Below are positions 1,443-60,877 of a stretch of 64,000 nt of DNA, piece by piece; the stretch's first letter is position 1, and every line of letters begins with the position of its first letter. The translations under genes were made by a program, and so were the position numbers. This DNA comes from Chloroflexota bacterium (GTDB lineage: Bacteria; Chloroflexota; Dehalococcoidia; UBA2247; RBG-13-53-26), in NCBI GenBank assembly GCA_016875915.1, contig VGOM01000007.1, positions 1-64,000 of the forward strand, given 5' to 3'. The notes below the pieces were generated by a model that saw only the letters and a program-made list of their open reading frames with translations, was not told the origin of the DNA and searched no databases.

Positions 1443-3407
1443 TTGACCGTGAAGCACCTGAAGAAGCTGTTCACTCCCCTCAGGATCGGCTCCGTGGAGC
1501 TGAAGAACCGGATCGTCATGGCACCGATGACCACCACCTGGGCTCCCAACGACGGCACGGTGCCGGACAAGATGATCGACTACTGGGAGGAACGGGCCAA
1601 GGGCGGAGTAGGGCTGATCATCTTCGAAACGGTGGTTGTGGATTCTGCCCATCCATATATAGTCCAGAGCGTGGGACTGTGGGATGACAAGCTCATCCCC
1701 AGCTTCAAGAGACTCGTCGACGCCATGCATGCCCACGGCGCCAAGGTGGCGCCCCAGATCTCCCACCCCGGCCCGGAGTCTTTCGGATGGATATACGGTG
1801 TCCAGCCCGTGGGGCCCTCGGCTGTGGTCAGCAAGAGGCACGGGCAGGTCTGCCGGGAGCTGACCCTGGAGGAGATCAAGAAGATCATCGAGCAGTACGG
1901 GGATGCGGCCAGACGCGCGAGGGAGGCGGGCTGCGACTGCATGGAGTTGCATGCGGCCCACAGGTACATGCTGGCGGGGTCATTCCTGTCACCGCTGCGC
2001 AATCAGCGCACGGATGAGTACGGCGGGGGCATCGATGGGCGGCTGAAGTTCGTCCTGGAAGTGGTGGAGAACATCAAGAAGAAGGCGGGGAAGGACTTCC
2101 CGATCATCATGCGCATGTCCGGCGACGAGCACATGGCCGGGGGCAGGGACTTGGCAGACTCGCTGTACATCACACCGAAGCTGGCCGAGGCAGGCGTGGA
2201 CGCCTTTGAGATCTCCGGAGGGGTGGACCCAGACGACACCTACCGGGTGCTGCCCTGCATGGGCATGCCGCCCGGGGCCAATGTGCCCCAGGCAGCCGCC
2301 ATCAAGCAGGTGGTGGATGTGCCCGTGCTGGTGGTGGGCAAGATCACCGACCCGCGGTTCGCCGATGACGTCCTGATCAAGGGCTACGCCGACGCCATAG
2401 TCATGGGAAGAGCCCTCATCGCCGACCCGGAACTGCCCAACAAGGCCAAGGCAGGCCATTTCGAGGACATCGCTCCCTGCACCAGTTGCGGCCAGGGCTG
2501 TCTGCGGATGGGCCTGACCTTTGAAGCCTTCACCTGCGTCATCAATCCCACTGTGGGCAGAGAGAAGGAGATGGCCATCACCCCGGCGGCCAAGCCCAAG
2601 AAGGTGCTGGTGGTCGGCGGCGGGCCGGGGGGCATGGAGGCGGCCCGCGTGGCGGCGATCAGGGGCCACAACGTGACGCTGTGGGAGACGGCCGCCAAGC
2701 TGGGCGGACAGCTCTGCCTGGCTCCCATCCCCCCCACGAAGCAGGATATGGCCAAGTGGGTGATCTACCTCTCCGCCCAGATGAAGAAGGCCAAGGTCAA
2801 GGTGGAACTGAACAGGGAGGCCACGGCGGAGTCCATCGTGGACTTCAAGCCGGATGTGGTCATCGTGGCCACCGGCGGCAAGCCGCTCATCCCGCCCATT
2901 CCGGGCATCGAGGGGAAGAAGGTGGTCACGGCCGCCGATGTCCTGGCCGGGAAGGTGGGCGTGGGCCGGGGCAATGCCCTGGTGGTGGGAGGCGGCATGG
3001 TAGGCTGCGAGGTGGCCGACTGGCTGGCCAGCCGGGGGCTGGACCAGACCACAGGGAGCGTCCACGTGACCATAGTGGAGATGCTGCAGGATATCGGCAT
3101 GGATGAAATCCCCCAGACCAGGATGCTGCTCATCCCCAGGCTGGAACAGAAGGGGGTGAAGTGGACTACCTCGGCCACGGTGAAAGAACTGACGGAGGAC
3201 GGCGCCGTGTACACCAAGGATGGCCGGGACGAGACCATCCGGGGCATGGAATTCATAATCATCGCCTGCGGGGCCGCTTCCGTCGATGACCTGAGCGAGA
3301 AGATCAAGGACAGAGTGCCCGAGGTTCATGTCATCGGCGACGCCAAGAAGGCCCGGAAGGCGCTGGAGGCCATCGCCGAGGCGGCGGAGATCGCCAGGAA
3401 GATCTGA
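1443..3407 (+). CDS. OYE-family NADH:flavin oxidoreductase fused to an FAD/NAD(P)-binding domain (2,4-dienoyl-CoA reductase / BaiCD-BaiH-like), paralog 1 of 3
   Basis: 654 aa. N-terminal TIM-barrel OYE motifs (RIVMAPM, HAAHRYML), central 4-Cys stretch (CTSCGQGCLRMG), C-terminal GGGPGG Rossmann motif. TTG/GTG start follows a GGAGG RBS. Confidence 0.85.
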   Translation: MTVKHLKKLFTPLRIGSVELKNRIVMAPMTTTWAPNDGTVPDKMIDYWEERAKGGVGLIIFETVVVDSAHPYIVQSVGLWDDKLIPSFKRLVDAMHAHGAKVAPQISHPGPESFGWIYGVQPVGPSAVVSKRHGQVCRELTLEEIKKIIEQYGDAARRAREAGCDCMELHAAHRYMLAGSFLSPLRNQRTDEYGGGIDGRLKFVLEVVENIKKKAGKDFPIIMRMSGDEHMAGGRDLADSLYITPKLAEAGVDAFEISGGVDPDDTYRVLPCMGMPPGANVPQAAAIKQVVDVPVLVVGKITDPRFADDVLIKGYADAIVMGRALIADPELPNKAKAGHFEDIAPCTSCGQGCLRMGLTFEAFTCVINPTVGREKEMAITPAAKPKKVLVVGGGPGGMEAARVAAIRGHNVTLWETAAKLGGQLCLAPIPPTKQDMAKWVIYLSAQMKKAKVKVELNREATAESIVDFKPDVVIVATGGKPLIPPIPGIEGKKVVTAADVLAGKVGVGRGNALVVGGGMVGCEVADWLASRGLDQTTGSVHVTIVEMLQDIGMDEIPQTRMLLIPRLEQKGVKWTTSATVKELTEDGAVYTKDGRDETIRGMEFIIIACGAASVDDLSEKIKDRVPEVHVIGDAKKARKALEAIAEAAEIARKI

Positions 3408-10134: not shown

Positions 10135-10166
10135 TGCGCCTAGACAAGCACTGAGGAGGCACTAGC

Positions 10167-10476: not shown

Positions 10477-10551
10477 AACAGAAAGGGAGCGCGGGTGGAC
10501 ATCGGGGGTGAGGCACGGGATTGCATTGGAGGGGAGTCCGCCGAGTGGGGT

Positions 10552-13223: not shown

Positions 13224-13225
13224 GT

Positions 13226-15909: not shown

Positions 15910-15925
15910 CAGAGCACAACTCCAA

Positions 15926-36360: not shown

Positions 36361-36566
36361 GCACTCCGAGCCCTGACCCCTAGGGGCGGTGAGCCTACGG
36401 GGCAGCGGCCGGCAGGGTATCGCGGGAAACGGCGATGCCTCCCTCAGCTTGGAAAGGAGTGTATGGCTAGAAGGGCAGGCCCGGAATGCCGGGCGCCACC
36501 GGGTACGGATTGATGTCTTTGATGCGATCGGCCCCATGTTTATGTAAATAAAGGACAGAAGGATCA

Positions 36567-37451: not shown

Positions 37452-37475
37452 CAGCACTGGGAGAACTGCAAGACA

Positions 37476-38165
37476 TTGACCGAACTTTGGGACGGATTAG
37501 TACAAGCCCTGCACCTAATCGTCACCTTCGACGATGAGGTGGTGGACATCGCGTGGAGGTCGCTGCGGGTATCGGCGGCCTCCACCGTCCTGGCAGCCCT
37601 GATCTGCATCCCCCTGGGCGGACTGATCAGCTTCCGCAGTTTCCGGGGCAAGCGCCTGCTGATCAACGTCATCCAGACCTTCTACAGCGTGCCCACGGTC
37701 TGCGTGGGCCTGTTCGTCTTCCTGATGCTCTCGCGGGCTGGGCCCCTGGGGGGACTAGGACTCCTGTTCACGCCGTCGGCTATGGTGGTGGGGCAGGCGC
37801 TGCTGATCACGCCCATCATGCTGGGGCTGACCATCTCCGCCCTGAGCAGCGTGGACAAGAACATCAGGGACACCACCCTGTCCCTGGGTGCCTCCGAGCG
37901 GCAGGCCATCTGGGCCATTATCAAAGAGGCCAGATTCGCCATCAGCGCCGCCATCGTCCTCGGCTTCGGCCGGGCCATCTCCGAGGTGGGGGTAGCGATG
38001 ATGGTGGGAGGGAACATCAGGGGCTTCACCCAGATTCTGACCACGGCGATCGCTGACGAGGCCAACCAGGGTAACGTAGAACTGGCGCTGGCTCTCGGCG
38101 TGATCCTCCTGGCAATTGCCCTAGTCGTCACTCTGGGTGTCAACCTGGTACAGCAGAGGCGCTGA
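37476..38165 (+). CDS. tupB: Tungstate ABC transporter permease TupB
   Basis: 229-aa 5-6 TM permease with an ABC TMD EAA-like loop. Confidence 0.75.
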   Translation: MTELWDGLVQALHLIVTFDDEVVDIAWRSLRVSAASTVLAALICIPLGGLISFRSFRGKRLLINVIQTFYSVPTVCVGLFVFLMLSRAGPLGGLGLLFTPSAMVVGQALLITPIMLGLTISALSSVDKNIRDTTLSLGASERQAIWAIIKEARFAISAAIVLGFGRAISEVGVAMMVGGNIRGFTQILTTAIADEANQGNVELALALGVILLAIALVVTLGVNLVQQRR

Positions 38166-39241
38166 TGTCCATCATGCAAGTCATCGATCTACACCAGCGC
38201 CACGGCTCCAGGGAGACGCTGAAGGGCGTATCGTTCTCCCTAGAGCAGGGGGAGGTGTTCGGGATCATCGGCCCGACCGGCTCGGGGAAGACAACGCTGC
38301 TGCGCCTGCTGGACCAGATCGAGGTGCCCTCCTCAGGCAGGGTCTACTTCGAAGGGCGGGATGTCACCGGATCACCCAGGCTGCGGTCAGAGCTGAGGCG
38401 CAAGGTGGGGATGGTCCTTCAGAAGCCGGTGGTCTTTGATGCCAGTGTCTATGACAACGTGGCCTTCCCTCTGAGACTGCGAAGGTACAGCAGAAAGGTT
38501 GTCCACGGCAAGGTGGACACCATGCTGAATGCAGTGGGGCTCGATGGCTACCAGAGGCGGAATGCGCGCACGCTGTCGGGCGGCGAAACCCAGAAAGTGG
38601 CCCTGGCGCGGGCACTGATCACCAATCCGCAGGCACTGCTACTGGACGAGCCGACGGCCAACCTGGACCCGGTCAGCCTGAAGACGATCGAGGAGTTCAT
38701 CCTGCGGTTCAGCCGGGAGAACGGAACGACGATTGTCATTGCCACACACGAGATGGCCCAGGGCCAGCGCCTGGCCGACAGGATAGGCGTGATAATGGAG
38801 GGACAACTGGTCCAGATCGGCAAACCATCCGAGATCTTCTATGCGCCAAGCGACATCAGGGTCGCCCGCTTCGTAGGGGTTGAGAACATCCTGGAGGGAA
38901 GGGTGACTTCAAACCGGGAGGGGCTCGTTCACTTGGACGTCCACGGACGCGCCGTAGAGGCCATAGCCAATCGTCATCCAGGTGATGAGCTGCACCTGTT
39001 CATCAGACCGGAGGACGTAGTCCTGTCACTGAGCGAGGCCTCAACCAGCGCCAGGAACTCCTTCTCAGGTCAGATAGCCGGGCTGGCCATGTCTGGTCCC
39101 TTGGCCAGGGTACACCTCGATTGCGGCTTCCCGCTGGTGGCACTGATCACCAGACAGTCAGCCGAAGACCTGGGACTGCAGGTCGGGAAGCAAGCTCACG
39201 TTTCCTTCAAGGCAACCGCGGTCCACGTCATCGGGCAGTGA
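38165..39241 (+). CDS. tupC: Tungstate/molybdate ABC transporter ATP-binding protein with C-terminal TOBE domain
   Basis: Walker A GPTGSGKTT, LSGGETQKVALARAL, Walker B LLLDEPTANLD, C-terminal TOBE-like domain. Start overlaps the tupB stop. Confidence 0.85.
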   Translation: MSIMQVIDLHQRHGSRETLKGVSFSLEQGEVFGIIGPTGSGKTTLLRLLDQIEVPSSGRVYFEGRDVTGSPRLRSELRRKVGMVLQKPVVFDASVYDNVAFPLRLRRYSRKVVHGKVDTMLNAVGLDGYQRRNARTLSGGETQKVALARALITNPQALLLDEPTANLDPVSLKTIEEFILRFSRENGTTIVIATHEMAQGQRLADRIGVIMEGQLVQIGKPSEIFYAPSDIRVARFVGVENILEGRVTSNREGLVHLDVHGRAVEAIANRHPGDELHLFIRPEDVVLSLSEASTSARNSFSGQIAGLAMSGPLARVHLDCGFPLVALITRQSAEDLGLQVGKQAHVSFKATAVHVIGQ

Positions 39242-50053: not shown

Positions 50054-50854
50054 TTGAAGATCGTGCGTTTTGGGGCCGGGGGCAGGGCCAGGTACGGTGT
50101 GCTAGAAGGAGATACCATCCGCGGCCTCCGGGGCAGCCCCTTCGCCGACTCCGGAGTCGGCCTTGGCTCCCTCGAGTTCGACGGCAAGACCCTCGATGCG
50201 GGCAAGGCGAAGCTGCTCGCTCCCTGCACTCCATCCAAGCTGGTGTGCCTGGGGGTGAACTACCGCAGCCACGCTGAAGAGACAGGACTGCCCACGCCCC
50301 CGCTGCCCCTGATCTTCCTCAAGCCGTCCACGGCAGTGATCGGCCCGGAGGAGAAGATCGTCCTGCCCCCGCTGCCCAAGCGCCGCGTGGACTACGAAGC
50401 AGAGCTGGGAGTGGTCATCGGGAGAAGGGCCAGAAACGTGGCCAGGGAGGAGTTCGGCCGGTACGTGCTGGGCTACACCTGTGTGAACGACGTCACGGAG
50501 CGCTACGCTCAGCGGGACGACGGCCAGTGGACAAGGGCCAAGAGCTTCGACACCTTCGCCCCCATCGGGCCCTGGATCGAGACCGACATCAGCCCGCATG
50601 ACCTGAAGATCGAGAGTTGCCTCAACGGCGAGGTCCGCCAGTCAGCCCGGACCAGTGATCTGATATTCGGCGTGGCGGAGCTGGTGAGCTTCATCTCCGG
50701 CATCATGACGCTGCTGCCGGGCGATGTGATCGCCACAGGCACGCCCTCGGGCATCGGGCGGATGAATGCCGGCGATGTGATCGAGATCAGGATCGAGGGG
50801 ATCGGCACGCTGAGGAACTTCGTGGTGGACCAGTCTCAAGGAGAAGCGGCATGA
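50054..50854 (+). CDS. Fumarylacetoacetate hydrolase (FAH) family protein
   Basis: TTG start after GGGGGAG RBS. FAH-fold motifs (KLVCLGVNYRSHAEE, YEAELGVVIG, GDVIATGTPSGIG). Confidence 0.8.
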   Translation: MKIVRFGAGGRARYGVLEGDTIRGLRGSPFADSGVGLGSLEFDGKTLDAGKAKLLAPCTPSKLVCLGVNYRSHAEETGLPTPPLPLIFLKPSTAVIGPEEKIVLPPLPKRRVDYEAELGVVIGRRARNVAREEFGRYVLGYTCVNDVTERYAQRDDGQWTRAKSFDTFAPIGPWIETDISPHDLKIESCLNGEVRQSARTSDLIFGVAELVSFISGIMTLLPGDVIATGTPSGIGRMNAGDVIEIRIEGIGTLRNFVVDQSQGEAA

Positions 50855-52833
50855 GCAGACTGAAGCACCTCTTCCAGCCGGTGAAGATAGGCACCATGGA
50901 GATCCAGAACCGGATCGTGATGTCCGCCATGGACCCCGGCTTCGGCATTGACGACGACGGGTGCGTGACGGAACAGCTCACCGCGTTCCTGGTGGAGAGG
51001 GCCCGGAGCGGCCCAGGGATGATCGTCACCGGCGCGACTCCGGTGCACCCCTCGGGGACAGCAGATCCGAACACCATCAAGATGGTGCACCTGTGGGAGG
51101 ACAGGGTGCTGCCCAGTCTGGAAGCCATGGTGAAGGCGGTGCACCGCTACGACGTGAGGTTCGGGGCCCAGTTGAACCATGGAGGGCTGGCCCATATCCC
51201 TCAGGAGGCGGTGTGCGCTTCGGTGATCCCGGAACTGACCCAGCTCGGACTGCCTGTGAGGGAGGCCACCAGGGATGACCTGCAGGAGTATGTCGAGGCC
51301 TTCGCCGCCGGGGCAGAGAAGTCGGTGAGGGCGGGCTTCGACTTCATCGAGATCCATGGTGGTCACGGCTATCTGATCAACACCTTCCTCACTCCCTACT
51401 ACAACCGGAGGATGGACGAGTACGGCGGCAGCTTCGACAACAGGATCAAGTTCCTCCTGGAGATCATCCGGGCCATCAGGGAGAGGATCGGCCGCGGCGT
51501 TCCCCTCGGGGTGCGGCTGAACGGCGACGATTTCATTCCACAGGGAGGCTGGAGGCTGCCGGAGGTCTGCCGGCTGGCTCCCATCCTGGAGAGGGAGGCG
51601 GTGGACTACATCAACATATCGGCCGGGGCCACCTCCATGGGCACGTTGCACTACACCATTATGCCCATGTACCAGGAGCAGGGTGTCTTCGCCCCCTTCA
51701 GCGAGGAGGTGAAGAGATACGTCTCCATCCCAGTGATCCTCACGGGACGGATCAAGAGCCCGGTAGTGGCGGAAGGGATCATCAAGGAGGGCAGGGCCGA
51801 CCTGGTGGTCATGTCCCGGGCCCAGATCGCCGATCCCGATCTGGTAGAGAAGGCCAGACAGGGCCGCCTGGCTGACATACGGCCCTGCCTGGCGGAGTGC
51901 CTGGGGTGCATCGAGGGGATCCTGCGCTACGGCGAGGCAAGCTGCGCGGTGAACGCCAGACTGGGCAGGGAGTACCTCCTGAAGGAGATCGAGGGGGAGA
52001 AGAAGGCCTCGGCGAAGAGGGTGCTGGTGGCCGGGGCAGGGTGCGCCGGGCTGGAAGCGGCCCGAAGGGCGGCCTTCGCCGGGCACAAGGTGATTCTCTG
52101 CGAGAGCCGGAGTTGGATCGGCGGCCAACTCAGGCTGGCGGCCATGATGCCCGGGAGACAGGAGATCGGGGACATCATCCCCTGGTACGAGAGGCAGTTG
52201 CACAACCTAGGGGTGGAGATACGGCTGAACACCGCCGTGGATGAAGGCCTACTGGGCGACATTCGGCCCGACGTGCTGGTGATAGCCTGCGGCAGCCTGC
52301 CGGAGGTGTCTCTGGGGTTCATCGACGGACTGGGGAATATCAGGGATATCGAGCTGGTCATGGCCGACGAACTCATTGAGGAAGGACGGCTGACGGGCGC
52401 GGCCGTGCTGGTCATCGGCGGGGATCAGATCGGGCTGCAGGTGGCCGACCTTCTGTCACGGGACGGCAAGACCGTGCACGTGGTGGAGAAGGGGGACCAC
52501 TTCGGGCAGAAGATGGCCTCCAACGACAGGCGCTTCCTCATGGGCCGGCTGATCGCCCAAGGGGTGAAGAGGCACAAGAACGTGGAGGGCATCGAGGTCC
52601 TGCCCACCGACGAAGTGTGGATGACCAGCGGAGGCAGGCGCGAGAGGCTGCCAGCGATCGAGACCATTGTTCTGACCAGCCAGAGACGCCCCAACGTATT
52701 CCTGGAAGAGGCGGCCAAGCGGAAGGGCATCGAGACTCACATCGTCGGCGACTCCGCGGGCGTCGCCGCTGAGGGCCAGGGCACCATCATGGCGGCGATC
52801 ACCGCCGGATACGATGTGGGCCGACAGATCTAG
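50851..52833 (+). CDS. OYE-family NADH:flavin oxidoreductase fused to an FAD/NAD(P)-binding domain (BaiCD/BaiH-like), paralog 2 of 3
   Basis: 660 aa, collinear with 1443..3407 (IQNRIVMSAM, HGGHGYLIN, 4-Cys patch, VLVAGAGCAGLEAA). Start overlaps the FAH stop. Confidence 0.85.
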   Translation: MSRLKHLFQPVKIGTMEIQNRIVMSAMDPGFGIDDDGCVTEQLTAFLVERARSGPGMIVTGATPVHPSGTADPNTIKMVHLWEDRVLPSLEAMVKAVHRYDVRFGAQLNHGGLAHIPQEAVCASVIPELTQLGLPVREATRDDLQEYVEAFAAGAEKSVRAGFDFIEIHGGHGYLINTFLTPYYNRRMDEYGGSFDNRIKFLLEIIRAIRERIGRGVPLGVRLNGDDFIPQGGWRLPEVCRLAPILEREAVDYINISAGATSMGTLHYTIMPMYQEQGVFAPFSEEVKRYVSIPVILTGRIKSPVVAEGIIKEGRADLVVMSRAQIADPDLVEKARQGRLADIRPCLAECLGCIEGILRYGEASCAVNARLGREYLLKEIEGEKKASAKRVLVAGAGCAGLEAARRAAFAGHKVILCESRSWIGGQLRLAAMMPGRQEIGDIIPWYERQLHNLGVEIRLNTAVDEGLLGDIRPDVLVIACGSLPEVSLGFIDGLGNIRDIELVMADELIEEGRLTGAAVLVIGGDQIGLQVADLLSRDGKTVHVVEKGDHFGQKMASNDRRFLMGRLIAQGVKRHKNVEGIEVLPTDEVWMTSGGRRERLPAIETIVLTSQRRPNVFLEEAAKRKGIETHIVGDSAGVAAEGQGTIMAAITAGYDVGRQI

Positions 52834-52848: not shown

Positions 52849-53379
52849 ATGACATCCCCAAACCCAGCAGAACGCGCCTTCCCCACGGACAGCGAATTCG
52901 AGTCGCTCTTCGGGGCGCAGATCGCCGCGGCCACCAGGATGCTGGCCGGGCATGCCGGAGGCATCTGCCAGTCGTGCCGCGGGGAGTGCTGCCGCAGGAT
53001 CGAGTGTGAGTTCTACTCAGACCGGTTCGACTGCTGCCCCATACACGGGTACCGTCCGGTGAAGTGCCGCTTCTACTACTGCGAGAAGATCCTGGAGAAC
53101 GAGACGCTGAGCGACGAGGCACGCTGGCTGCTCAACCGGCCGGCACGGGAGCTGTCTGACCGCCTCAGAGAGGACCAGGGCCTGCGGGTATTCATCGAGC
53201 CGCCAGTCAGAATCGGGGGCCGAAGCTGGCTGGCCCGGTTCGGCATCGAGGACGAAGTGGCCGGGATAGTCAGAGCCGTGAGCAAGGGCGCCCTGAGTGC
53301 CGAAGCCGGCACGGCCGGGCTGGCCGAACTGGTCCGGCAGTGCAGAGAGCGGCCGTCCGGCTCAGTGGACGATCGATGA
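52849..53379 (+). CDS. YkgJ/UPF0153-like Cys-rich putative Fe-S/zinc protein
   Basis: CQSCRGECCRR...C...CC...YRPVKCRFYYC pattern (CxxCxxCC ... RPxxCRxF). Family recalled from memory. Confidence 0.5.
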   Translation: MTSPNPAERAFPTDSEFESLFGAQIAAATRMLAGHAGGICQSCRGECCRRIECEFYSDRFDCCPIHGYRPVKCRFYYCEKILENETLSDEARWLLNRPARELSDRLREDQGLRVFIEPPVRIGGRSWLARFGIEDEVAGIVRAVSKGALSAEAGTAGLAELVRQCRERPSGSVDDR

Positions 53380-54408
53380 AGGCCCGGCGATGGTTTCCGG
53401 GATGAACTCCGGCGGCCTGACCAGCTCCATCGTCATAGCGCCCGGCGGGCACTTGAGCACACAGACACCGCAGCCGACGCACTTCTCGGCATTGATGACC
53501 GCCTTCGGCGCGTCAGGGCCATGGACCTTCTTCATCTCGATGCCATCGAAGAAGCACCAGGAGACGCAATCCCCGCAGCCGTCGCAGAGATCATTGTCCA
53601 CTTCGACCAGGAAGCGGCTGGCGGCCAGGGCCTGGGGCACCTTGTCCGCCCTGATGATGGGGTTGAGCACCAGGCAGGCACACTTGTCGCAGTAGCAGAT
53701 GAACTCCAGGGCCTCCATCGGCGAAACGTTGGCCACGGTGGGCACCAGGCCCGCCTTGCCGGCCTTCATGGACACGGCAATGGCCTCCCCCGCCGAGACC
53801 TTCCGTCCGCTGCCCCGATAGAGGTCGTATTCCGCCCTCCGGCCGAACTGGGTGCAGACCTCGGTGGGGTGATCACAGGCCTTGGCGCCCACGCGGCAGC
53901 AGCAGTGACGCACCGTGATCAGCTCCTTGTGGGCCTCGATGATGTCCGCGATGCTCTCGTGAGGCAACAGCTTCACATCCGGCGGGGTGGACTTGAGGAT
54001 GGGGGCCACCCTGAGCACGGCATTTCCCAGGGTGGTCAGTGAGTCGGCTATCTCGCGCCACCAGCCGCTCTCATAGAAGTCCATCCACAGCCTGTCGATG
54101 CCCGGCGGGACGTGCTGGGGCAGGCTGGCCAGGATGTTGTCATGCAGCGTGCCCAGGTCCCGGGGATAGCGGAACCCCTTCCGTGATGAAACCACCAGAC
54201 CTCTGCGGGCCAGATTGAGCACCCTGTCCGCCACCGCCCTCTCATCCATGCCGAACTTGGCCGCCAGATCGGCATTGGCCGCCGGCAACTCCAGGAGAAA
54301 CCGGGCCTCTTCAGGGGTCATGGCCTTCTCCAGTATCCGGTGCAGCAGCTCCGAGTCGCGGTGTCCACCCCTCTCCGCCAGCTTCACATAGGCCTCATCA
54401 GTCTTCAT
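53362..54408 (-). CDS. Fe-S protein with C-terminal 2x[4Fe-4S] ferredoxin domain
   Basis: C-terminal CDGCGDCVSWC and CVGCGVCVLKCP motifs plus additional Cys pairs (HCCCRVG, CYCDKCAC). N-terminal about 150 aa is unassigned. Confidence 0.6.
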   Translation of the reverse strand: MKTDEAYVKLAERGGHRDSELLHRILEKAMTPEEARFLLELPAANADLAAKFGMDERAVADRVLNLARRGLVVSSRKGFRYPRDLGTLHDNILASLPQHVPPGIDRLWMDFYESGWWREIADSLTTLGNAVLRVAPILKSTPPDVKLLPHESIADIIEAHKELITVRHCCCRVGAKACDHPTEVCTQFGRRAEYDLYRGSGRKVSAGEAIAVSMKAGKAGLVPTVANVSPMEALEFICYCDKCACLVLNPIIRADKVPQALAASRFLVEVDNDLCDGCGDCVSWCFFDGIEMKKVHGPDAPKAVINAEKCVGCGVCVLKCPPGAMTMELVRPPEFIPETIAGPSSIVH

Positions 54409-54447: not shown

Positions 54448-54969
54448 TCACTTCCCGGGCGGCGCGAACATACTCCTGGTGATCCTCAGGCTCTTGGTCT
54501 CGTTCCGGTCCCAGACCTCCTCGAAGACGCGGTCGTAGCCGGTCTGCTGGATCTTCCATTCCCCGCCGACCTTGACGTACTCGTCATGATAGAAGGACGC
54601 CCCCCTCAGAGCGGTGTTGCTCTGAGTGACGATGACATAGTCGTGCAAAGCCCAGATCCCCCTGGCCGTGGTCTTGCCGGTGATCTCGATCTCGGGGTGA
54701 TGTCCGTGGTGCATGCTGATCATGGTCGGCCCCAGCCCTTCCCTGAGGAACTTCATGATGGCCTCCCGGCCCTGAAAGCTGTACTTGCCGCCGGAGTAGC
54801 TGGTGGTGGCATCCTCGGCGAAGCACTCCACCAACTCGTCCCACAGCTTGCTGTCCAGGCAGCGGAAGTAGCGGTACTTCAGGCGCTTGATGGCCTCTAT
54901 GTCGTCGCGAACGGCCTGCGCCCGCTCCAGCTTCTTCAACCGTGCTTCTATCTTCGAGGCCTCAGCCAT
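54448..54969 (-). CDS. SnoaL/NTF2-like protein resembling bile-acid 7-alpha-dehydratase BaiE
   Basis: 173 aa with DIEAIKRLKYRYFRCLDSKLWDEL, TTSYSGGK, ISMHHGHHPEIEI, GGEWKIQQTGY, which matches BaiE motifs as recalled from memory. Confidence 0.6.
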   Translation of the reverse strand: MAEASKIEARLKKLERAQAVRDDIEAIKRLKYRYFRCLDSKLWDELVECFAEDATTSYSGGKYSFQGREAIMKFLREGLGPTMISMHHGHHPEIEITGKTTARGIWALHDYVIVTQSNTALRGASFYHDEYVKVGGEWKIQQTGYDRVFEEVWDRNETKSLRITRSMFAPPGK

Positions 54970-55033: not shown

Positions 55034-56641
55034 CTACTTCTTGCCCGCTTGGGCAGCGTGACGGGCGGCGATGTAGCCGAAGATCATGCTCTTGCCCTGC
55101 GCCGCGCCGCTGTCGTAGTGGTGGCCCAGGGGCAGCATGGCCTGGGTATTGCTGGTGCAATACAGGCCAGGTATCACCCGACCGCGCACATCGATGACCT
55201 GAGCCTGAATATCGGTGACCAGTCCGCCCAGATTCCCCGCCGTGGTCAGGCCGAGGCGCACGCCATAGAAGGGCGGCTTCTCCAGCGCGCCAAGCACGGC
55301 ACCAGCGCCGCGTCCGGGGAAGACGAACTCTCCCCACTGGAGATCGAAGGTGCTCTCTCCCCGGCGGAAGTCGGGGTCCTTTCTCTCTCTGGCAAACCTA
55401 TTGAACCGCTCCACGGTCTCCACGAAGTTGTCCGCCGGAATGCCCAGCGCCCCGGCCAGCTCCGGGAGCGTCTGGCCGCGCTTGATCCAGTCGGCCACGT
55501 CCGTGCCCCTCTTCAAAGTCATCACAGGCATGAAATCCCGGAAGGCCTGGTCGCAGATCCAGAAGATGGGCCAGTTGGCGAATTCCCCCCTGATCCGGTC
55601 GTACTCCAGGAAGGCCCGGCCCATGTCAGGATAGAAGCTCTCGTTGCAGCAGCGCCGGCCATAGCGATTGACCATGATCATGTTGGGATACCCATAGATG
55701 AAAGGCCGGTAGAAGGGCTTGCCCCCCTCGACCACCTCGCCGGGGAGATTGAAGCCGGGCTGAAAGATGCTGTGGTCCATCAGGGCCAGCGCCGCGCCGA
55801 CCTCCATGCCCATGATATGGCCATCGCCTTCGTTGGAGGGAGCGGTGTACGCGTGAAGCGGCGGCGAGTAGATGAATCGCCGGTTCATCTCCTCGTTCCA
55901 CTCGAAGCCTCCCGTGGCCAGCAGGACGCCCCGTCGGCCCCTGACGAAGAAGTCGCGCCCGTTGCGCTCCGCGCGGAGTCCGACCACCCTGCCGTCGTCG
56001 ACGATCAACTCCTGACCGCGAACGCCCGTGATTATGTCAACTCCACGCTGGGCACAGGCCAGTGTCAGAGCGCCGATGAGGGCCCGGCCCTGAACCCAGG
56101 GCGGGCGGGGCCCGATGAGGTACTTCACCGGGTCCTTGCGCACTCTGGCCACGATGGGGTGGGCCTTCTCCGCCTCCTCCAGTACGGGGGGCATGATCTG
56201 GGGATCGGGCCAGATCTTCCGGCCCATGCACTTCCCGCCGGGGACATCGGCGCAGTACTCGGTGCGGCTGGCATCGGTCTCAGCAGTCATCTTCAAGGGT
56301 GTGTGTTCCTCGATGTAGCGGAGCATCACCGGGCCGTTGTCCAGGTAGGCAGCCAGGAGCGGCTCATCATGGTGCCCCATGCTCACTCCGCGGACGTAGG
56401 TCAGCGCGTCCTCCCGGGAGTCGTGGATGCCGGCTGCCGGCATGTGGTGATTGAACGGTATCCAGATCACCCCTCCGGAAAGGGCCGTGCCTCCGCCGAG
56501 GACATCGGCTTTCTCCAGCACCACCGTCTTCAGTCCCAAGTCATGGCCCACGATGGCGGCGGTCAGCCCGCCGCTGCTGGAGCCGACGGCCACCAGGTCA
56601 ACTTCTAGGTCCCAGCTCTGGGGAACCCTGTTCTTGATCAT
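55034..56641 (-). CDS. FAD-dependent oxidoreductase (3-ketosteroid-delta1-dehydrogenase / fumarate-reductase flavoprotein family; BaiJ-like)
   Basis: Start at MIKNRVP with GGAGGT RBS. VDLVAVGSSSGGLTAAI dinucleotide fold. C-terminal FAD_binding_2-type closure (AAGNLGG). Confidence 0.75.
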   Translation of the reverse strand: MIKNRVPQSWDLEVDLVAVGSSSGGLTAAIVGHDLGLKTVVLEKADVLGGGTALSGGVIWIPFNHHMPAAGIHDSREDALTYVRGVSMGHHDEPLLAAYLDNGPVMLRYIEEHTPLKMTAETDASRTEYCADVPGGKCMGRKIWPDPQIMPPVLEEAEKAHPIVARVRKDPVKYLIGPRPPWVQGRALIGALTLACAQRGVDIITGVRGQELIVDDGRVVGLRAERNGRDFFVRGRRGVLLATGGFEWNEEMNRRFIYSPPLHAYTAPSNEGDGHIMGMEVGAALALMDHSIFQPGFNLPGEVVEGGKPFYRPFIYGYPNMIMVNRYGRRCCNESFYPDMGRAFLEYDRIRGEFANWPIFWICDQAFRDFMPVMTLKRGTDVADWIKRGQTLPELAGALGIPADNFVETVERFNRFARERKDPDFRRGESTFDLQWGEFVFPGRGAGAVLGALEKPPFYGVRLGLTTAGNLGGLVTDIQAQVIDVRGRVIPGLYCTSNTQAMLPLGHHYDSGAAQGKSMIFGYIAARHAAQAGKK

Positions 56642-56835: not shown

Positions 56836-57603
56836 GTGTACCCATCGTTTTCTCTGGCCAACAGAGTGGCCATCGTCACCGGTTCCGGCCGGGGCATTGG
56901 CAAGGCCACCGCCCTGGGCATGGCTCAGGCCGGTGCCGATGTGGCAATCCTGGCCCGCACCGCCGCCGATGTGGAGAAGACCGCAGGGGAGGTGCGCGCA
57001 CTGGGCAGGCGGGCCCTGGCCATTCCCACGGACGTCAGGATCAGCGAGCAGATACTGGCCATGGTGGAGGCGACACTGAAGGAGTTCGGGCGGATCGACG
57101 TACTGGTGAACAACGCCGGCGCCGCCTTCCTCGCGCCGACTCTCAGCCTCAGTGAGGGCGGCTGGGACGCCCTGATCCGGGAGAACCTGAAGACCCCCTT
57201 CCTGTGCAGCAAGGCGGTGGCCCCGGCCATGATCAAGCAGGGCAAGGGCAGCATCATCAACATCTCCTCCACAGAGGGGGTGCGCTCAGCGGCGACCACC
57301 GCGGCTTATGCCGCGGCCAAGGCAGGGGTGATCAACCTCACCCGCAGTCTGGCGGTGGAGTGGGCTCAGCACGGGATCAGAGTGAACGCCGTCTCCCCCG
57401 GATTCATCGAGAATCCGGGGTTGCCCGAGGCGCTGCAGGCGAACACAGGGCTTCAGGAGAAGCTGTCCAGGGTGCCGTTGGCCCGCATGGGCAGGCAGGA
57501 GGATATCGTGGGTGGCGTGATCTACCTGGCCTCAGATGCCGCCGCCTACGTCACCGGGGCCAACCTGATCATCGACGGCGGCCTGACCAGCGTGCTGGGC
57601 TGA
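56836..57603 (+). CDS. Short-chain dehydrogenase/reductase (SDR)
   Basis: GTG start after GGGAGGTG. TGSGRGIG cofactor motif, NNAG, catalytic YAAAK. Confidence 0.85.
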   Translation: MYPSFSLANRVAIVTGSGRGIGKATALGMAQAGADVAILARTAADVEKTAGEVRALGRRALAIPTDVRISEQILAMVEATLKEFGRIDVLVNNAGAAFLAPTLSLSEGGWDALIRENLKTPFLCSKAVAPAMIKQGKGSIINISSTEGVRSAATTAAYAAAKAGVINLTRSLAVEWAQHGIRVNAVSPGFIENPGLPEALQANTGLQEKLSRVPLARMGRQEDIVGGVIYLASDAAAYVTGANLIIDGGLTSVLG

Positions 57604-57695: not shown

Positions 57696-58865
57696 CTATT
57701 GCTGGAGCTTGAACTCCCAGCGGCAGGCGATGTCTTCGGGGCTCTTCCGCGGCGGTAGTACGAGGGGGGTCACAGTCACCTTGGGGTTGACCAGGTACTT
57801 CTCGATGACCGGCTTCTCCAGGTGGTGACACATGGGGATGATCCTCTCTGGCTCCGCCTTCTCGAAGTAGTCCAGGGTGCGGCACTTCATCACCGTCATG
57901 ACCACGTGGTTGGGGCTGCGGACATCGTACTCGGCCGGGTACAGGCCGACGGTGTTGTCCAGAGGCAACTGGGTGACCTTGAGGGAGTCGAGCACCGTCT
58001 CCAGCTTGATGTTGGCTATCTTGGCGTACCTGGGATTGACCTTCTCTCCCACGATCATCCACGATGCCAGCTCGCACTCATTGGCGGCATCGGAACCATA
58101 CCGGGATTTCACCGCGTCGTAGTAGCCGCCGCTCATGATGATCCAGGCATACTGGTAGGACTGCATCAGCTTGAGAAGGAAGTCCTTGGAGAAGTTGGCA
58201 TGGGTGAGATTGAGATAGAAGGGACCGCTGTTGTCGTTCAGCTCTGGGATCTGATCCGATGGCCGCTCGTCGACCACCTCGGCCTTCTTCCTGATCTTGG
58301 TTCCCCTGGGGACTTTGATCTTGTACTCCCACTGACAGGCAATGTCCTCGCCGCTGCTGCGCGGAGGGAGCTTCAACGCCTTGACCTGGATATTGGGATT
58401 GACGATGTACTTCTTGATGATCTGGGGCTCATTCACCTGGCACATCGGCCCGATCCGGCCCGGCTCCTCCCGCTCACACCACTCCAGGGCAACGCACTTC
58501 CGCACCGTGACGATGGCATGGTTCTCGTTCTTGATATCGTAGTGAACCGGGAAGATGCCGCCCATGGTGTTGTCCAGAGGCAACTGGAGCAGCTTCAGTG
58601 AGTCCACAACGCTGTTCAGGGGGATGTTGGCCAGCTTGGCGTAGCGGGGATTGCAGCGCTCGGCCACCCTCAGCCACATCTCCAGGTCGCACTCCCAAGC
58701 CACCTTGTCGCCCCATCTCTTCTTCACCACGTCGAACCAGGCGGCATCCATGCGCAGCCAGGCCCACTGCCAGACGCCGATCAGTTTGACCAGGAACTCC
58801 TTTGAGAAATCCGAGAATCTCAGTCCGGGATTGAACGGGCCACTGAGGTCATTGAGCTCTGCCAT
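57696..58865 (-). CDS. Tandem-duplicated uncharacterised-domain protein (2 x about 180 aa)
   Basis: The two halves align residue by residue (ELNDLSGPFNPGLRFSDFSKEFLVKL... vs ELNDNSGPFYLNLTHANFSKDFLLKL...; ...NPRYAKLANI vs NPRYAKIANI; ...PPRSSGEDIACQWEYK vs PPRKSPEDIACRWEFK). Same domain as 175..657. Confidence 0.65.
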   Translation of the reverse strand: MAELNDLSGPFNPGLRFSDFSKEFLVKLIGVWQWAWLRMDAAWFDVVKKRWGDKVAWECDLEMWLRVAERCNPRYAKLANIPLNSVVDSLKLLQLPLDNTMGGIFPVHYDIKNENHAIVTVRKCVALEWCEREEPGRIGPMCQVNEPQIIKKYIVNPNIQVKALKLPPRSSGEDIACQWEYKIKVPRGTKIRKKAEVVDERPSDQIPELNDNSGPFYLNLTHANFSKDFLLKLMQSYQYAWIIMSGGYYDAVKSRYGSDAANECELASWMIVGEKVNPRYAKIANIKLETVLDSLKVTQLPLDNTVGLYPAEYDVRSPNHVVMTVMKCRTLDYFEKAEPERIIPMCHHLEKPVIEKYLVNPKVTVTPLVLPPRKSPEDIACRWEFKLQQ

Positions 58866-58942: not shown

Positions 58943-60877
58943 CTAGATCTGGGCGGCCACCCTGGCCGCCTGGTAGGCCACCTCGGCGGCATCCCGCGGC
59001 CGGACGCAGTCGCCGACGCTGTATAGTTCCGCCGCCACGCCCTCAAGCTCCTGGGCCAGCTTGTTCTCCGACTTCATGCCCACCGCCAGAATGACCGTAT
59101 CGGCCGGCAGGGTATGGATGTCCCCTCCCATGGAGAAGATCACCGCTTTGTCGGTGATCTCCATGACAGTGGAGTTCAGATAGAGCGGAACCCGCAGGTC
59201 GAGCAGCCTTCTGGCCAGCGTCTTGAAGCTGAGCTTCTCCAGCTTGATGCCGTCCTCTCCCAGGCCGGCGCGGGTGACCAGGGAGACCTCCCGACCCTGC
59301 TCAGCCAGCCAGATGGCCACCTCCATGCCGATGAACCGTCCGCCGACCACGATGACCTTGCCCTCGGCCTGGACCTTGCCCTCGATGACGTCATGCCCCT
59401 GAACGACACTGCCGCCGGTGCCGCCGGGCACTCTGAGCCACACGGGCACCGCACCTGTGGCCACCACCACGGCATCCGGCCTCACCTCAGCGACCAGCCC
59501 CCTGGTGACCTCGGTGTTCAGGGTGATATTGACGCTGTACCGGTCCAGAAAGCGCTTGAGATACTGGGTGAACGCCGCATAGCCCTCTTTGCCGGGTGTG
59601 GCACAGGCCACATTCCACTGGCCGCCAAGCTGCGCTTTCTTCTCGTACAGTGAGACCCGATGTCCCCGCTGCGCCAGGAAGAGGGCCGCCTGCATGCCAC
59701 CCAGCCCACCGCCGACGACCATGACCCGCTTCGGCGCCTTAGCTGGAGGGGGAGGGTACCTGGCCTCCCTGTAGAGATAGGGATTCACAGAACAAGAACC
59801 CGGCCCGGCCTCAGGGTCGGTCTTGAGGCAGTTGTTGCAGTAAATGCAGCGGCGGACGTCCTCCACGGGGCCCCTATGGATCTTCTCCGGAAGCTCGGGG
59901 TCCGCCAGAAGAGGCCGGCCCATAGCCACGAAATCAGCCCTGCCCCCGGCAATGACCTCCTCGGCCAGCTCAGCGTCTATCTTGCCGGCGGCGATCACCG
60001 GCACCTGGACCGCTTTCTTGATGCGCTCCGCCATGGACACCATGGGGCCTTTGGGGTAGGGGTAACAGGGTATGCTCAGGGTGGACCAGTACTCCAGTCC
60101 CCCGGAGACGCTGATGGCGTCCGCGCCTGCTGCTTCCAGTATCCGGGCCTGCTCCGCGGCCTCGTCAAGGGTGACCCCGCCCTCCACGTCGTCACTGGCG
60201 TTGACTCTAACCCACAAGGGATACTCCCTGCCCACCTCCTGCCGGATCCGCTCCAGGACCATCCGGGCGAAGCGGGCCCGGTTCTCCACGGAGCCTCCGT
60301 ACTGATCGGTGCGGCGGTTGGTGACGGGGGACATGAAGCTGCTGATCAGGCAGCCATGGCAGGCATGAAGCTCAATGGCGTCGGCACCGGCCTGTCTGGC
60401 CCGGCGCGCCGCCTGGCCGAAATCCTCCATGTATCGCTCGATATCACTGCTGCTGAGCTCATGGTAGGGGTTCCTGGTCTCCTTCAGCCAGGGCATCATG
60501 GACGGGACCAGTATGGAGAACTCCTCAGGCACCACCTCGGAGTACAGGAGAAGCATGCCGATATGCATCAGTTGGATGCAGAAGGCGGCGCCGGCCTCAT
60601 GGACCGCATCGGCCACCCGGCTCCAGTCCGGCACGTGACCATCGTCACACAGGGCCATGGTGTACGGGAGTGCGGAGTCCCGGCTCACTGCGGCGAACTG
60701 CGGAGTGACCATGGCCGCGCCACCCGCCGCCCGGGTGCGGTAGTAGCTGACCAGTCGGTCGGTGACCCTGCCCTCCGCGTCCGCCAACTGGGTGCCCATG
60801 GCGGGCATGATAAGCCTGTTCTTCAACTGGAGCGAGCCTATCCTGCCCGGCTGGAACAGTGAGGGAAAACGCTTCAT
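58943..60877 (-). CDS. OYE-family NADH:flavin oxidoreductase fused to an FAD/NAD(P)-binding domain (BaiCD/BaiH-like), paralog 3 of 3
   Basis: 644 aa: LKNRLIMPAM, HACHGCLIS, CIYCNNC Cys patch, VMVVGGGLGGMQAA. Confidence 0.85.
   Translation of the reverse strand: MKRFPSLFQPGRIGSLQLKNRLIMPAMGTQLADAEGRVTDRLVSYYRTRAAGGAAMVTPQFAAVSRDSALPYTMALCDDGHVPDWSRVADAVHEAGAAFCIQLMHIGMLLLYSEVVPEEFSILVPSMMPWLKETRNPYHELSSSDIERYMEDFGQAARRARQAGADAIELHACHGCLISSFMSPVTNRRTDQYGGSVENRARFARMVLERIRQEVGREYPLWVRVNASDDVEGGVTLDEAAEQARILEAAGADAISVSGGLEYWSTLSIPCYPYPKGPMVSMAERIKKAVQVPVIAAGKIDAELAEEVIAGGRADFVAMGRPLLADPELPEKIHRGPVEDVRRCIYCNNCLKTDPEAGPGSCSVNPYLYREARYPPPPAKAPKRVMVVGGGLGGMQAALFLAQRGHRVSLYEKKAQLGGQWNVACATPGKEGYAAFTQYLKRFLDRYSVNITLNTEVTRGLVAEVRPDAVVVATGAVPVWLRVPGGTGGSVVQGHDVIEGKVQAEGKVIVVGGRFIGMEVAIWLAEQGREVSLVTRAGLGEDGIKLEKLSFKTLARRLLDLRVPLYLNSTVMEITDKAVIFSMGGDIHTLPADTVILAVGMKSENKLAQELEGVAAELYSVGDCVRPRDAAEVAYQAARVAAQI

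Follow-up and report, generated by a model that had tools for sequence, protein, structure and literature searches.

Background

BaiE, a homotrimeric enzyme responsible for the stereospecific 7alpha-dehydration of 3-oxo-Delta4-cholenoyl(-CoA), catalyses the committed and irreversible step of secondary bile acid formation. The bai operon comprises baiB (CoA ligase), baiCD, baiA, baiE, baiF (CoA transferase), baiG (transporter) and baiH, and the bacteria possessing this pathway are reported to be rare members of the gut community. Catalytic and substrate-binding roles have been assigned to individual residues of BaiE in a review of crystallographic and mutagenesis work, which gives Y115 a stacking contact with the adenine of the CoA thioester substrate. 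The free acid is also accepted by the enzyme, with an efficiency roughly 10-fold higher on the CoA ester.

Hsh2, a proteobacterial homologue of BaiE found in Sphingobium sp. Chol11 and Azoarcus sp. Aa7, is proven to be a 7alpha-hydroxysteroid dehydratase. It acts on free Delta4-3-keto bile salts in the Delta4,6 variant of bile-salt degradation and is required for the anaerobic route in Azoarcus sp. Aa7; the 5beta-Delta4-KSTD of the same pathway, also proven, is a member of the OYE family. Hsh2 homologues have been reported from environmental metagenomes, the published cutoffs for orthologues being E <= 1e-25 and at least 35% identity, and S. herbicidovorans MH and N. aromaticivorans F199 carry predicted Hsh2 orthologues and were picked for tests of the Delta4,6 route. 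SteC and Hsh1, the 12beta-hydroxysteroid dehydratases of Comamonas and Pseudomonas, are likewise NTF2/SnoaL dehydratases of steroid ring hydroxyls, but they act at C12 on the C ring, share about 28% identity with BaiE and are far more distant from the protein described here than either BaiE or Hsh2. A further arrangement is found in the Paeniclostridium (Clostridium) sordellii-type locus, which has a baiE-like gene and an upstream flavin oxidoreductase gene, with no other bai genes.

The gene and its product

The window analysed here is a 64-kb stretch of DNA originating from the deep water of Lake Tanganyika. On its minus strand, at 54448..54969, lies an open reading frame which runs from an ATG to a stop codon at 54448-54450 and encodes a protein of 173 aa, a BaiE/Hsh2-type NTF2-like (SnoaL_4) protein hereafter referred to as the dehydratase. 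The third codon positions have a GC content of 0.89 against 0.635 overall, the ATG is preceded by the Shine-Dalgarno-like GGAAAGGGG, an identical protein with the same neighbours is encoded on at least nine independent metagenome contigs and the product matches the Pfam SnoaL_4 family with an E-value of 5e-33. The reading frame is therefore regarded as a real gene and a chance ORF is excluded. The sequence motifs quoted in the original prediction, which named no strand, DIEAIKRLKYRYFRCLDSKLWDEL, TSYSGGK, ISMHHGHHPEIEI and GGEWKIQQTGY, were all found exactly in the translation.

Similarity to BaiE

Three BaiE sequences head the search of PDB with the dehydratase, with E-values of 1e-38 to 7e-37 across almost the entire protein; the best chain other than BaiE gives 1e-7, a gap of about 30 orders of magnitude. 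BLASTP aligns 153 aa with C. scindens BaiE at 43% identity, and a trimmed alignment gives 45%. The AF2 model of the protein (pLDDT 90.8) consists of a helix at residues 2-40 followed by a beta-sheet, and its best four Foldseek matches in PDB are all BaiE, with TM values of about 0.8 and an rmsd of 1.7-2.5 A. The dehydratase thus has in common with BaiE an NTF2-like/SnoaL_4 fold, a length of about 165-175 aa and a long N-terminal helix, and differs in a C-terminal tail which is missing from the aligned BaiE chains.

The original prediction had proposed a specific BaiE homologue and had taken an identity below 25% as the mark of a generic resemblance; the alignment to BaiE gave 43-45%, well over that value, and together with the separation of the E-values (1e-38 to 7e-37 against 1e-7 for the next match) it bears out the specific relationship. 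The opposing view, that the protein is a generic or non-catalytic SnoaL/NTF2 protein resembling BaiE at the level of the fold, draws on the breadth of SnoaL_4 and on the NCBIfam models, which gave only noise-level matches, none of them claiming the protein. The full-length alignment at this identity, the distance separating BaiE from other NTF2 proteins of PDB, the BaiE fold matches and the catalytic residues considered below, which are invariant across phyla, effectively refute it. The dehydratase is a full-length relative of BaiE, far beyond a generic SnoaL protein.

Catalytic residues and CoA handling

The residues Tyr30, Asp35 and His83 of BaiE, which the original prediction had singled out for comparison, are all present in the dehydratase as Y34, D39 and H87, and these three are invariant among 20 homologues. 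In a family alignment of 86 sequences they are invariant or nearly so (in BaiE numbering, Y30 in 84, D35 in 85 and H83 in all 86). The BaiE contact residues Tyr126, Arg146 and Asp106, retained in 84, 84 and 75 of the 86 sequences respectively, correspond to Y127, R147 and D110, and seven of the 16 residues in the pocket loop at positions 48-63 of BaiE, with the core TSYSxGK, are identical in the dehydratase.

A difference from BaiE lies in the segment associated with CoA. The DGKY-type insertion of four residues which carries Y115 occurs solely in the three canonical BaiE sequences of the alignment and in none of the other 83, the dehydratase included; the presumed sphingomonad Hsh2 orthologues likewise lack it. 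Also, genes for a CoA ligase, a CoA transferase and a transporter of the BaiG type are all absent from the 64-kb window. In view of these absences and of the precedent of Hsh2 and BaiE for the use of the free acid, the dehydratase most likely acts on a free steroid or bile salt, without a CoA thioester, a property in which it would resemble Hsh2, an environmental, non-clostridial enzyme that works without CoA. The insertion bearing Y115 offers a simple sequence marker that divides the CoA-dependent gut enzymes from all the other members of the family.

The same observations bear on whether the gene product serves as a canonical BaiE, that is, in CoA-dependent Hylemon-Bjorkhem 7alpha-dehydroxylation as in C. 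scindens, with secondary bile acids being formed. The level of identity, the intact catalytic residues and the nearby genes for an SDR and for flavoenzymes of the BaiCD family speak for such a role, and close relatives carry the automatic JGI annotation 'bile-acid 7alpha-dehydratase'. Against it stand the missing Y115 CoA-stacking insertion, the absence of the baiB-type ligase, the baiF-type transferase and the baiG-type transporter from the 64 kb, OYE enzymes scoring far under the BaiCD equivalog cutoff, the KstD-like and Fer4 partners in an order unlike that of the bai operon, and a source in deep lake water and not in a gut. A canonical role is accordingly considered very unlikely. As it lacks the CoA-handle insertion and the window lacks the CoA-handling bai genes, the dehydratase is probably no canonical BaiE as regards the pathway, and KO-based 'baiE' calls in environmental metagenomes are not to be read as secondary-bile-acid production.

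Gene neighbourhood

The dehydratase gene lies on one strand between two genes with which it forms a trio that Chloroflexi loci retain, with identities of 60-91%. The first, 64 nt upstream (55034..56641, minus strand), encodes a KstD-like FAD flavoprotein of 535 aa with a Pfam FAD_binding_2 domain; its start was placed at 56641, an ATG preceded by a GGAGG Shine-Dalgarno sequence, while the mechanical ORF reaches a TTG at 56725. This gene adjoins the dehydratase gene in eight Chloroflexi loci. The top PDB matches of its product are the 3-oxosteroid 1-dehydrogenases 7p18 and 4c3x (AcmB, KstD; E about 1e-66), but the score of 358 bits with the NCBIfam KstD model falls well under the equivalog cutoff of 789, and the protein is only a family-level relative of KstD/AcmB. 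Among the NCBIfam models it also matches the 4-oxocyclohexanecarboxylate dehydrogenases, so the ring system involved need not be that of a steroid. The second gene, 39 nt downstream (53362..54408, minus strand), is preceded by a strong Shine-Dalgarno motif and is found directly downstream in the Chloroflexi loci too. It encodes a protein of 348 aa, the probable electron carrier of the module, in which some 260 uncharacterised N-terminal residues are followed by a 2x[4Fe-4S] ferredoxin domain at the C-terminus.

Divergent from the KstD-like gene lies that for a classical SDR of 255 aa (56836..57603, plus strand), a candidate hydroxysteroid dehydrogenase for making the 3-oxo group. Among the neighbours of BaiE-like genes in different phyla, an SDR recurs most often (30 of 74 loci), and SDRs are the commonest neighbouring family over seven lineages. 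The window also encodes three OYE-type Fe-S flavoenzymes, all with an FMN (OYE) domain, a 4-Cys Fe-S motif and an FAD/NAD domain: a 660-aa enzyme of the OYE/2,4-dienoyl-CoA-reductase type (50851..52833, plus strand; 438 bits with the BaiCD model), a 644-aa enzyme (58943..60877, minus strand; BaiCD the top match at 511 bits) and a 654-aa enzyme (1443..3407, plus strand) which has the best BaiCD score in the window, 552 bits, and is encoded 51 kb from the dehydratase. The family is that of BaiCD, BaiH and 5beta-Delta4-KSTD; BaiCD is the best or second-best NCBIfam model for all three proteins, and the scores of 438-552 bits lie under its equivalog cutoff of 825. The gene of the 660-aa enzyme is overlapped by 4 nt at its start by that of a fumarylacetoacetate-hydrolase-family (FAH) protein of 266 aa (50054..50854, plus strand), and on account of this overlap the two are probably translationally coupled. 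The FAH gene is co-linked in the loci L011, L017, L022 and L026, and the OYE and FAH genes remain linked in the Chloroflexi loci despite rearrangement. Outside the Chloroflexi, the neighbours of the BaiE-like genes are heterogeneous.

Compared with the described systems, the locus shares with the bai operon an SDR and family-level relatives of BaiCD/BaiH (the three OYE enzymes), and departs from it in the KstD-like and ferredoxin-domain genes which flank the dehydratase gene, in the gene order and in the host, gut Firmicutes in the one case and a member of the Chloroflexota from a lake water column in the other. The partners of Hsh2, namely a 3-HSDH (SDR), an OYE-type 5beta-Delta4-KSTD and a Delta1-KSTD, belong to the families found around the window gene. 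However, the hosts of Hsh2 have complete 9,10-seco or 2,3-seco clusters, and in the 64-kb window no genes for steroid side-chain degradation, for ring cleavage of either the 9,10-seco or the 2,3-seco type or for a bile-salt transporter were recognised; the host also belongs to another phylum and is probably an anaerobe. Proteins with a Molybdopterin/Molybdop_Fe4S4 architecture, encoded about 38 kb away, were considered as a possible 2,3-seco enzyme AtcABC and rejected, since AtcABC is of the xanthine-oxidase family. The sordellii-type loci resemble the present one in the absence of both the Y115 insertion and the CoA genes, and in an OYE encoded directly upstream of the Paeniclostridium BaiE-like gene which is 51% identical to the OYE at 1443..3407. 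In the window, however, this matching OYE gene is 51 kb off, and it is the KstD-like and Fer4 genes that adjoin the dehydratase gene.

Distribution and phylogeny

The relatives of the dehydratase span many phyla, with at least 574 species genomes containing them, and form 1076 clusters at 90% identity and 1309 at 50% identity with E <= 1e-10. They come from aquifer, soil, peat and marine MAGs, habitats in which the supply of 7alpha-hydroxysteroids is uncertain. Several paralogues are present in some genomes, as with the loci L017 and L029, which belong to one MAG, and with additional SnoaL_4 neighbours. The BaiE enzyme family is thus common among environmental bacteria, with its catalytic machinery intact. 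The nearest genomes by the dehydratase are Dehalococcoidia/Chloroflexi MAGs, which agrees with the placement outside the Clostridia in the original prediction, and the host probably belongs to the Dehalococcoidia of the Chloroflexota. The accompanying description as a rare homologue does not hold in view of the number of genomes and clusters, and a non-clostridial homologue, Hsh2, had already been described. The annotation of the dehydratase is a solid one with no rarity attached: the protein falls into an environmental branch of the BaiE family that is large and had been recognised before.

The closest relatives found in cultured organisms are the BaiE-like proteins of Paeniclostridium hominis, Paraclostridium and Romboutsia, which are 50-51% identical to the dehydratase. 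The comparison with Hsh2 was made with presumed sphingomonad orthologues taken from plasmid records and not with the characterised Hsh2; the values are 39.2% identity (E 8e-27) for S. herbicidovorans MH and 40.8% (E 3e-24) for N. aromaticivorans. The trimmed alignment puts the dehydratase at 37-39% identity to the top BaiE-like matches from S. herbicidovorans MH and from N. aromaticivorans F199, which share only 30-33% with BaiE. The dehydratase lies between BaiE and these presumed orthologues; the accompanying tree was a simple one, calculated by NJ with midpoint rooting and no support values.

Probable function

It appears fairly probable that the dehydratase is a BaiE/Hsh2-type hydroxysteroid dehydratase which acts independently of CoA within a local steroid module, and its most likely reaction, judged from homology, would be the conversion of 7-hydroxy-3-oxo-Delta4 steroids to Delta4,6-dienones. 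The enzyme would bind a 3-oxo-Delta4 steroid with a 7alpha-hydroxyl group; the C3 carbonyl would be polarised or protonated by Y34, assisted by Y127, the C6 proton would be taken by H87, tuned by D39, and H87 would then protonate the departing C7 hydroxyl to yield a conjugated 3-oxo-Delta4,6-diene and water. Of the neighbouring proteins, the divergent SDR would produce the 3-ketone, and one of the BaiCD/5beta-Delta4-KSTD-type Fe-S flavoenzymes would introduce the Delta4 bond or, at a later stage, reduce both the Delta6 and the Delta4 bond. Another double bond in the rings would be added or removed by the co-transcribed KstD-like flavoprotein, with electrons carried by the co-transcribed ferredoxin-domain protein. 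The steps might follow one another in this order and end in dehydroxylation or feed into degradation. Against this reading count the partner enzymes' scores well under the curated cutoffs, the lack of recognisable side-chain, ring-cleavage and bile-salt transporter genes in the window, the uncertain supply of 7alpha-hydroxysteroids in the habitats of the family, the heterogeneous neighbours outside the Chloroflexi and the other ring positions at which related NTF2 dehydratases act.

The same vinylogous dehydration of a hydroxy-enone to a dienone could also be directed at an alicyclic substrate other than a bile compound, such as an oxysterol, a derivative of a phytosterol, hopanoid or terpenoid, or a monocyclic hydroxy-cyclohexenone, with the hydroxyl perhaps elsewhere on the ring, as a part of the metabolism of recalcitrant alicyclic organic matter in the Chloroflexi. 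The size of the family and its spread through MAGs from aquifers, soil, peat and the sea, the paralogues in some genomes, the cyclohexanone-carboxylate dehydrogenase matches of the KstD-like partner and the action of the NTF2 dehydratases SteC and Hsh1 at C12 are in keeping with a different substrate, and a sterol- or hopanoid-like alicyclic degradation has been proposed in the literature for Chloroflexi SAR202 genomes. On the other hand, the BaiE contacts Y126, R146 and D106 and the TSYSxGK loop are kept in addition to the catalytic triad, the dehydratase falls between two enzymes of 7alpha-hydroxy-3-oxo-Delta4 bile acids and steroid dehydrogenases are the top matches of the KstD-like partner. 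A non-bile substrate is hence held possible but rather unlikely, and the hydroxysteroid dehydratase is preferred.

The conserved Chloroflexi cluster represents a concrete candidate for anaerobic steroid transformation, none having been demonstrated in this phylum. A more speculative extension of the hydroxysteroid reading, to which a low probability is given, is that the anaerobic Dehalococcoidia of Lake Tanganyika and related Chloroflexi possess a self-contained, CoA-independent and ferredoxin-linked module for the A and B rings of steroids that carries out the 7-dehydroxylation of bile salts or oxysterols. It would consist of the SDR, the BaiCD-type Fe-S flavoenzymes, the BaiE/Hsh2-type dehydratase, the KstD-like enzyme, the Fe-S protein and the FAH-family hydrolase, and may also begin the cleavage of bile salts or oxysterols, for example those derived from fish. 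If so, 7-dehydroxylation would extend to a phylum and a habitat without an established steroid metabolism, and the clostridial BaiE would have arisen inside an environmental radiation, the CoA-binding insertion being a late gain.

Other features of the window

Two further genes accompany the cluster. A Cys-rich protein of 176 aa (52849..53379, plus strand) has no family match and is conserved in the Chloroflexi cluster, and a DUF6125 protein of 389 aa (57696..58865, minus strand) is encoded directly downstream of the 644-aa OYE gene. A promoter and terminator scan, based on a consensus not validated for the Chloroflexi, returned two promoter-like sites against 1.8 expected. RNA genes offered no anchor for the taxonomy, since no tRNA genes were found in the window and a Moco riboswitch is its sole Rfam match.

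Identification of the dehydratase gene

The open reading frame on the minus strand at positions 54448-54969 starts with ATG, ends with a stop codon at 54448-54450 and encodes a protein of 173 aa, in the translation of which all the motifs quoted in the original prediction (DIEAIKRLKYRYFRCLDSKLWDEL, TSYSGGK, ISMHHGHHPEIEI and GGEWKIQQTGY) were found. It is a real gene, as indicated by its GC3 of 0.89 (GC content of the window 63.5%), the purine-rich Shine-Dalgarno-like motif upstream of the ATG and the presence of the identical protein, with the same neighbours, on at least nine independent metagenome contigs, one of which originates from the Lake Tanganyika water column (IMG metagenome 3300020074). 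The window carries a single copy of the gene.

Sequence, fold and catalytic residues

The protein was assigned to the SnoaL_4 family of Pfam (E 5e-33), and its predicted specific relationship to BaiE was borne out at the levels of both sequence and fold. In a comparison with the whole set of PDB sequences, the three different BaiE sequences (4l8p/4n3v, 4l8o and 4leh) were matched over nearly the full length with E-values of 1e-38 to 7e-37, well ahead of the next-best chain, a putative scytalone dehydratase (E 1e-7). Pairwise alignment with the Clostridium scindens BaiE using BLASTP gave 43% identity and 60% positives over 153 residues; the identity to BaiE in the trimmed family alignment is 45%. 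A confident AlphaFold2 model built with 20 homologues as input (mean pLDDT 90.8, pTM 0.84) had BaiE entries as its four best PDB matches in Foldseek (TM about 0.8, rmsd 1.7-2.5 Å), with 3ef8 and LinA clearly behind.

According to a review of the crystallographic and mutagenesis work on BaiE, Y30 serves as the general acid at the C3 carbonyl, while H83, tuned by D35, is the base that abstracts the proton at C6 and protonates the hydroxyl at C7; Y126, R146 and D106 are in contact with the substrate, stacking on the CoA thioester's adenine is the role of Y115 and an extended pocket is formed by the loop 48-63. The catalytic residues Y30, D35 and H83 correspond to Y34, D39 and H87 of the window protein and the contact residues Y126, R146 and D106 to Y127, R147 and D110, all of them present, and seven of the 16 residues of the pocket loop are identical, with the core TSYSxGK. 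In an alignment of 86 sequences (three BaiE, the window protein, proteins from 80 genome loci and two sphingomonad proteins), H83 is invariant (86/86), D35 is kept in 85, Y30, Y126 and R146 in 84 each and D106 in 75. Of the sequences in this alignment, only the three canonical bai-operon BaiE have the insertion of four residues in which Y115 lies; the insertion is absent from all the other 83, including the window protein, in which the site corresponds to residues 115-118, and the Peptostreptococcaceae and sphingomonad proteins. The insertion could serve as a sequence marker to tell the CoA-dependent gut BaiE apart from environmental 'baiE' annotations.

Distribution and phylogenetic placement

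Relatives of the protein are abundant, contrary to the rarity originally predicted. A word-indexed search retrieved relatives in 1076 clusters at 90% identity (E ≤ 1e-5), of which many bear the name 'bile-acid 7alpha-dehydratase' from the JGI pipeline, and an exhaustive HMMER search against 1.84 billion 50%-identity representatives gave 3415 matches at E ≤ 1e-3, 1309 at E ≤ 1e-10 and 68 at E ≤ 1e-30. Some of the best matches (P0122, P0124, P0126-P0129, P0131, P0134 and P0136, 430-534 aa, and P0121, 325 aa) carry three (or two) tandem BaiE-like domains in one polypeptide, and the Tyr-Asp-His triad is kept in most of these domains. Since BaiE is a homotrimer, the tandem-domain proteins have the look of dehydratase 'single-chain trimers' produced by covalent fusion.

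When one genome per species was scanned, at least 574 genomes proved to encode relatives. The nearest belong to Dehalococcoidia/Chloroflexi MAGs (up to 75% identity), followed by Myxococcota, Binatia, Desulfobacterota, Acidimicrobiales and Spirochaetales; the cultured Peptostreptococcaceae Paraclostridium, Romboutsia and Paeniclostridium have proteins with 50-51% identity. Two Chloroflexi MAGs have counterparts of the genes neighbouring the dehydratase with 83-91% identity, so the window derives from a Chloroflexota, probably a member of the Dehalococcoidia, in agreement with the predicted origin outside the Clostridia.

A non-clostridial BaiE homologue with proven activity is already known from the literature, namely Hsh2 of Sphingobium sp. 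Chol11 and Azoarcus sp. Aa7, which converts free Δ4-3-keto-7α-hydroxy bile salts to Δ4,6-dienones by dehydration and which Aa7 needs to degrade bile salts anaerobically; metagenomes of many environments have been reported to contain homologues of Hsh2. BaiE-like proteins were found here in Sphingobium herbicidovorans MH and Novosphingobium aromaticivorans F199 (plasmid/secondary-replicon records), two strains for which Hsh2 orthologues had been predicted and which had been picked for testing of the Δ4,6-route. The N. aromaticivorans gene is surrounded by CoA-transferase, enoyl-CoA hydratase, acyl-CoA dehydrogenase, VOC-family and SDR genes, a neighbourhood read as a steroid-degradation cluster. 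These presumed Hsh2 orthologues share 37-39% identity with the window protein and 30-33% with BaiE. They form the outgroup in a midpoint-rooted NJ tree without support values, in which the clostridial BaiE and the Peptostreptococcaceae proteins nest within the environmental radiation, beside the Dehalococcoidia clades. The window protein is an environmental BaiE/Hsh2-type dehydratase, and its position, bracketed by BaiE and the presumed Hsh2 orthologues, enzymes of the same reaction, supports the same chemistry as its probable activity.

Genes around the dehydratase

The dehydratase gene lies on the minus strand between a KstD-like FAD flavoprotein gene (55034-56641; 535 aa from an ATG with an upstream GGAGG) and a gene for a 348-aa protein with a C-terminal 2×[4Fe-4S] ferredoxin domain (53362-54408), with gaps of 64 and 39 nt; the dehydratase and ferredoxin-domain genes, both downstream of the KstD-like gene, have their own Shine-Dalgarno motifs. 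A classical SDR (56836-57603) is divergently transcribed. On the plus strand, an FAH-family hydrolase gene (50054-50854) overlaps by 4 nt (50851-50854) the start of the gene for a 660-aa OYE/2,4-dienoyl-CoA-reductase-type Fe-S flavoenzyme (50851-52833), followed by that of a Cys-rich 176-aa protein. FAH-family enzymes cleave C-C bonds of 1,3-dicarbonyls; a role of the predicted hydrolase in hydrolytic ring opening is therefore conceivable. A second OYE-type Fe-S flavoenzyme is encoded at 58943-60877 (minus strand) and a third at 1443-3407 (plus strand), 51 kb from the dehydratase.

DUF6125 proteins are encoded near two of the three OYE enzymes, one (57696-58865, minus strand) adjoining the second and the other (175-741, minus strand) separated from the third by a signal peptidase gene. 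The pairing is kept in two other genome loci (L010 and L011), suggesting that this flavoenzyme family has DUF6125 as a partner.

An SDR-family 3α-HSDH makes the 3-ketone in the Hsh2 pathway, after which the Δ4 bond is installed by 5β-Δ4-KSTD, a BaiCD homologue and OYE-type FMN/FAD enzyme; the 7α-dehydration by Hsh2 follows, and a Δ1-KSTD adds a further Δ1 double bond. BaiA, BaiCD, BaiE and BaiH fill equivalent roles on CoA esters in the clostridial pathway, in which the flavoenzymes then reduce the diene. At least one member of each of these enzyme families is encoded around the dehydratase and genes for CoA chemistry are absent from the window; the entire 64 kb lack genes for a CoA ligase, a CoA transferase and a bile-acid transporter. 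It is therefore proposed that the dehydratase works in a CoA-independent module. The homology, the catalytic residues and the non-clostridial origin of the original prediction stand, its rarity does not, and a canonical CoA-dependent Bai pathway, if implied, is probably wrong.

In the proposed module, the SDR and an OYE enzyme would produce a 3-oxo-Δ4 steroid, from which the BaiE/Hsh2-type enzyme would remove the 7α-hydroxyl to give a Δ4,6-dienone. The KstD-like and OYE flavoenzymes may then either desaturate it further, as happens in degradation, or reduce the diene, a net dehydroxylation serving as an electron sink, with the ferredoxin-domain protein as the putative electron carrier. Homology gives good support for the chemistry of the dehydratase step; the identity of the substrate, the order of the steps and the end point we infer. 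The best solved relatives of the KstD-like protein are the steroid Δ1-dehydrogenases AcmB (7p18) and KstD (4c3x) (E about 1e-66), and each of the OYE enzymes has BaiCD as its best or second-best NCBIfam model; all three have the 4-Cys motif. The partner enzymes score under the curated cutoffs (438-552 bits against 825 for BaiCD), and the KstD-like protein, also under its KstD cutoff, resembles 4-oxocyclohexanecarboxylate dehydrogenases as well. These scores, together with the wide habitat range of the family and its paralogy, leave some probability to the main rival explanation, namely the same chemistry on a different substrate, another alicyclic hydroxy-enone. The conserved gene cluster of the Chloroflexi is a candidate for the transformation of steroids under anaerobic conditions.

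Conservation of the gene context

The order of the KstD-like, dehydratase and ferredoxin-domain genes is kept in the Chloroflexi loci at 60-91% identity. In three loci (L017, L022 and L026) this trio is contiguous with the genes of the Cys-rich protein, the OYE enzymes and the FAH hydrolase in an order different from that of the window, and contiguity despite reordering argues for functional coupling; the FAH-family gene is linked to the dehydratase cluster in these three and in L011. SDRs are the sole neighbour family that recurs widely across all lineages (30 of 74 loci, seven lineages). Lineage-specific neighbours include a P450 with an RND pump, MFS transporters, sulfotransferases and extra SnoaL_4 paralogues. 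The Peptostreptococcaceae loci, which lack CoA genes, have an OYE gene directly 5' of the BaiE-like gene, an arrangement noted in P. sordellii by Ridlon and colleagues; this OYE enzyme shares 51% identity with the third OYE enzyme of the window.

The Acidimicrobiales MAGs (L062, L066, L072 and L079-L089, around positions 8500-13900) have a fixed, different context, with a DapB_N/DAP_DH_C-type dehydrogenase (about 360 aa) upstream and an SDR immediately downstream of the BaiE-like gene, often followed by an MFS transporter. This arrangement is a second conserved module of the BaiE-like family.

Other features of the window

A Moco (molybdenum/tungsten cofactor) riboswitch was detected on the plus strand at 36352-36475 (74.7 bits, E 3e-16), downstream of a GntR + PBP_like regulator (35164-36360). 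Just downstream of the riboswitch (36567-39241) are genes for a periplasmic binding protein, a permease and an ATPase with a TOBE domain, taken to be a molybdate/tungstate-type ABC importer. Two tandem pairs of a molybdopterin oxidoreductase (735-736 aa; Fe4S4, Molybdopterin and Molydop_binding domains) and a glyoxalase/VOC-domain protein (158-185 aa), an unusual pairing, are encoded on the minus strand at 10552-16498, with a Fer4_11 four-cluster subunit (15926-16498, minus strand) upstream of them.
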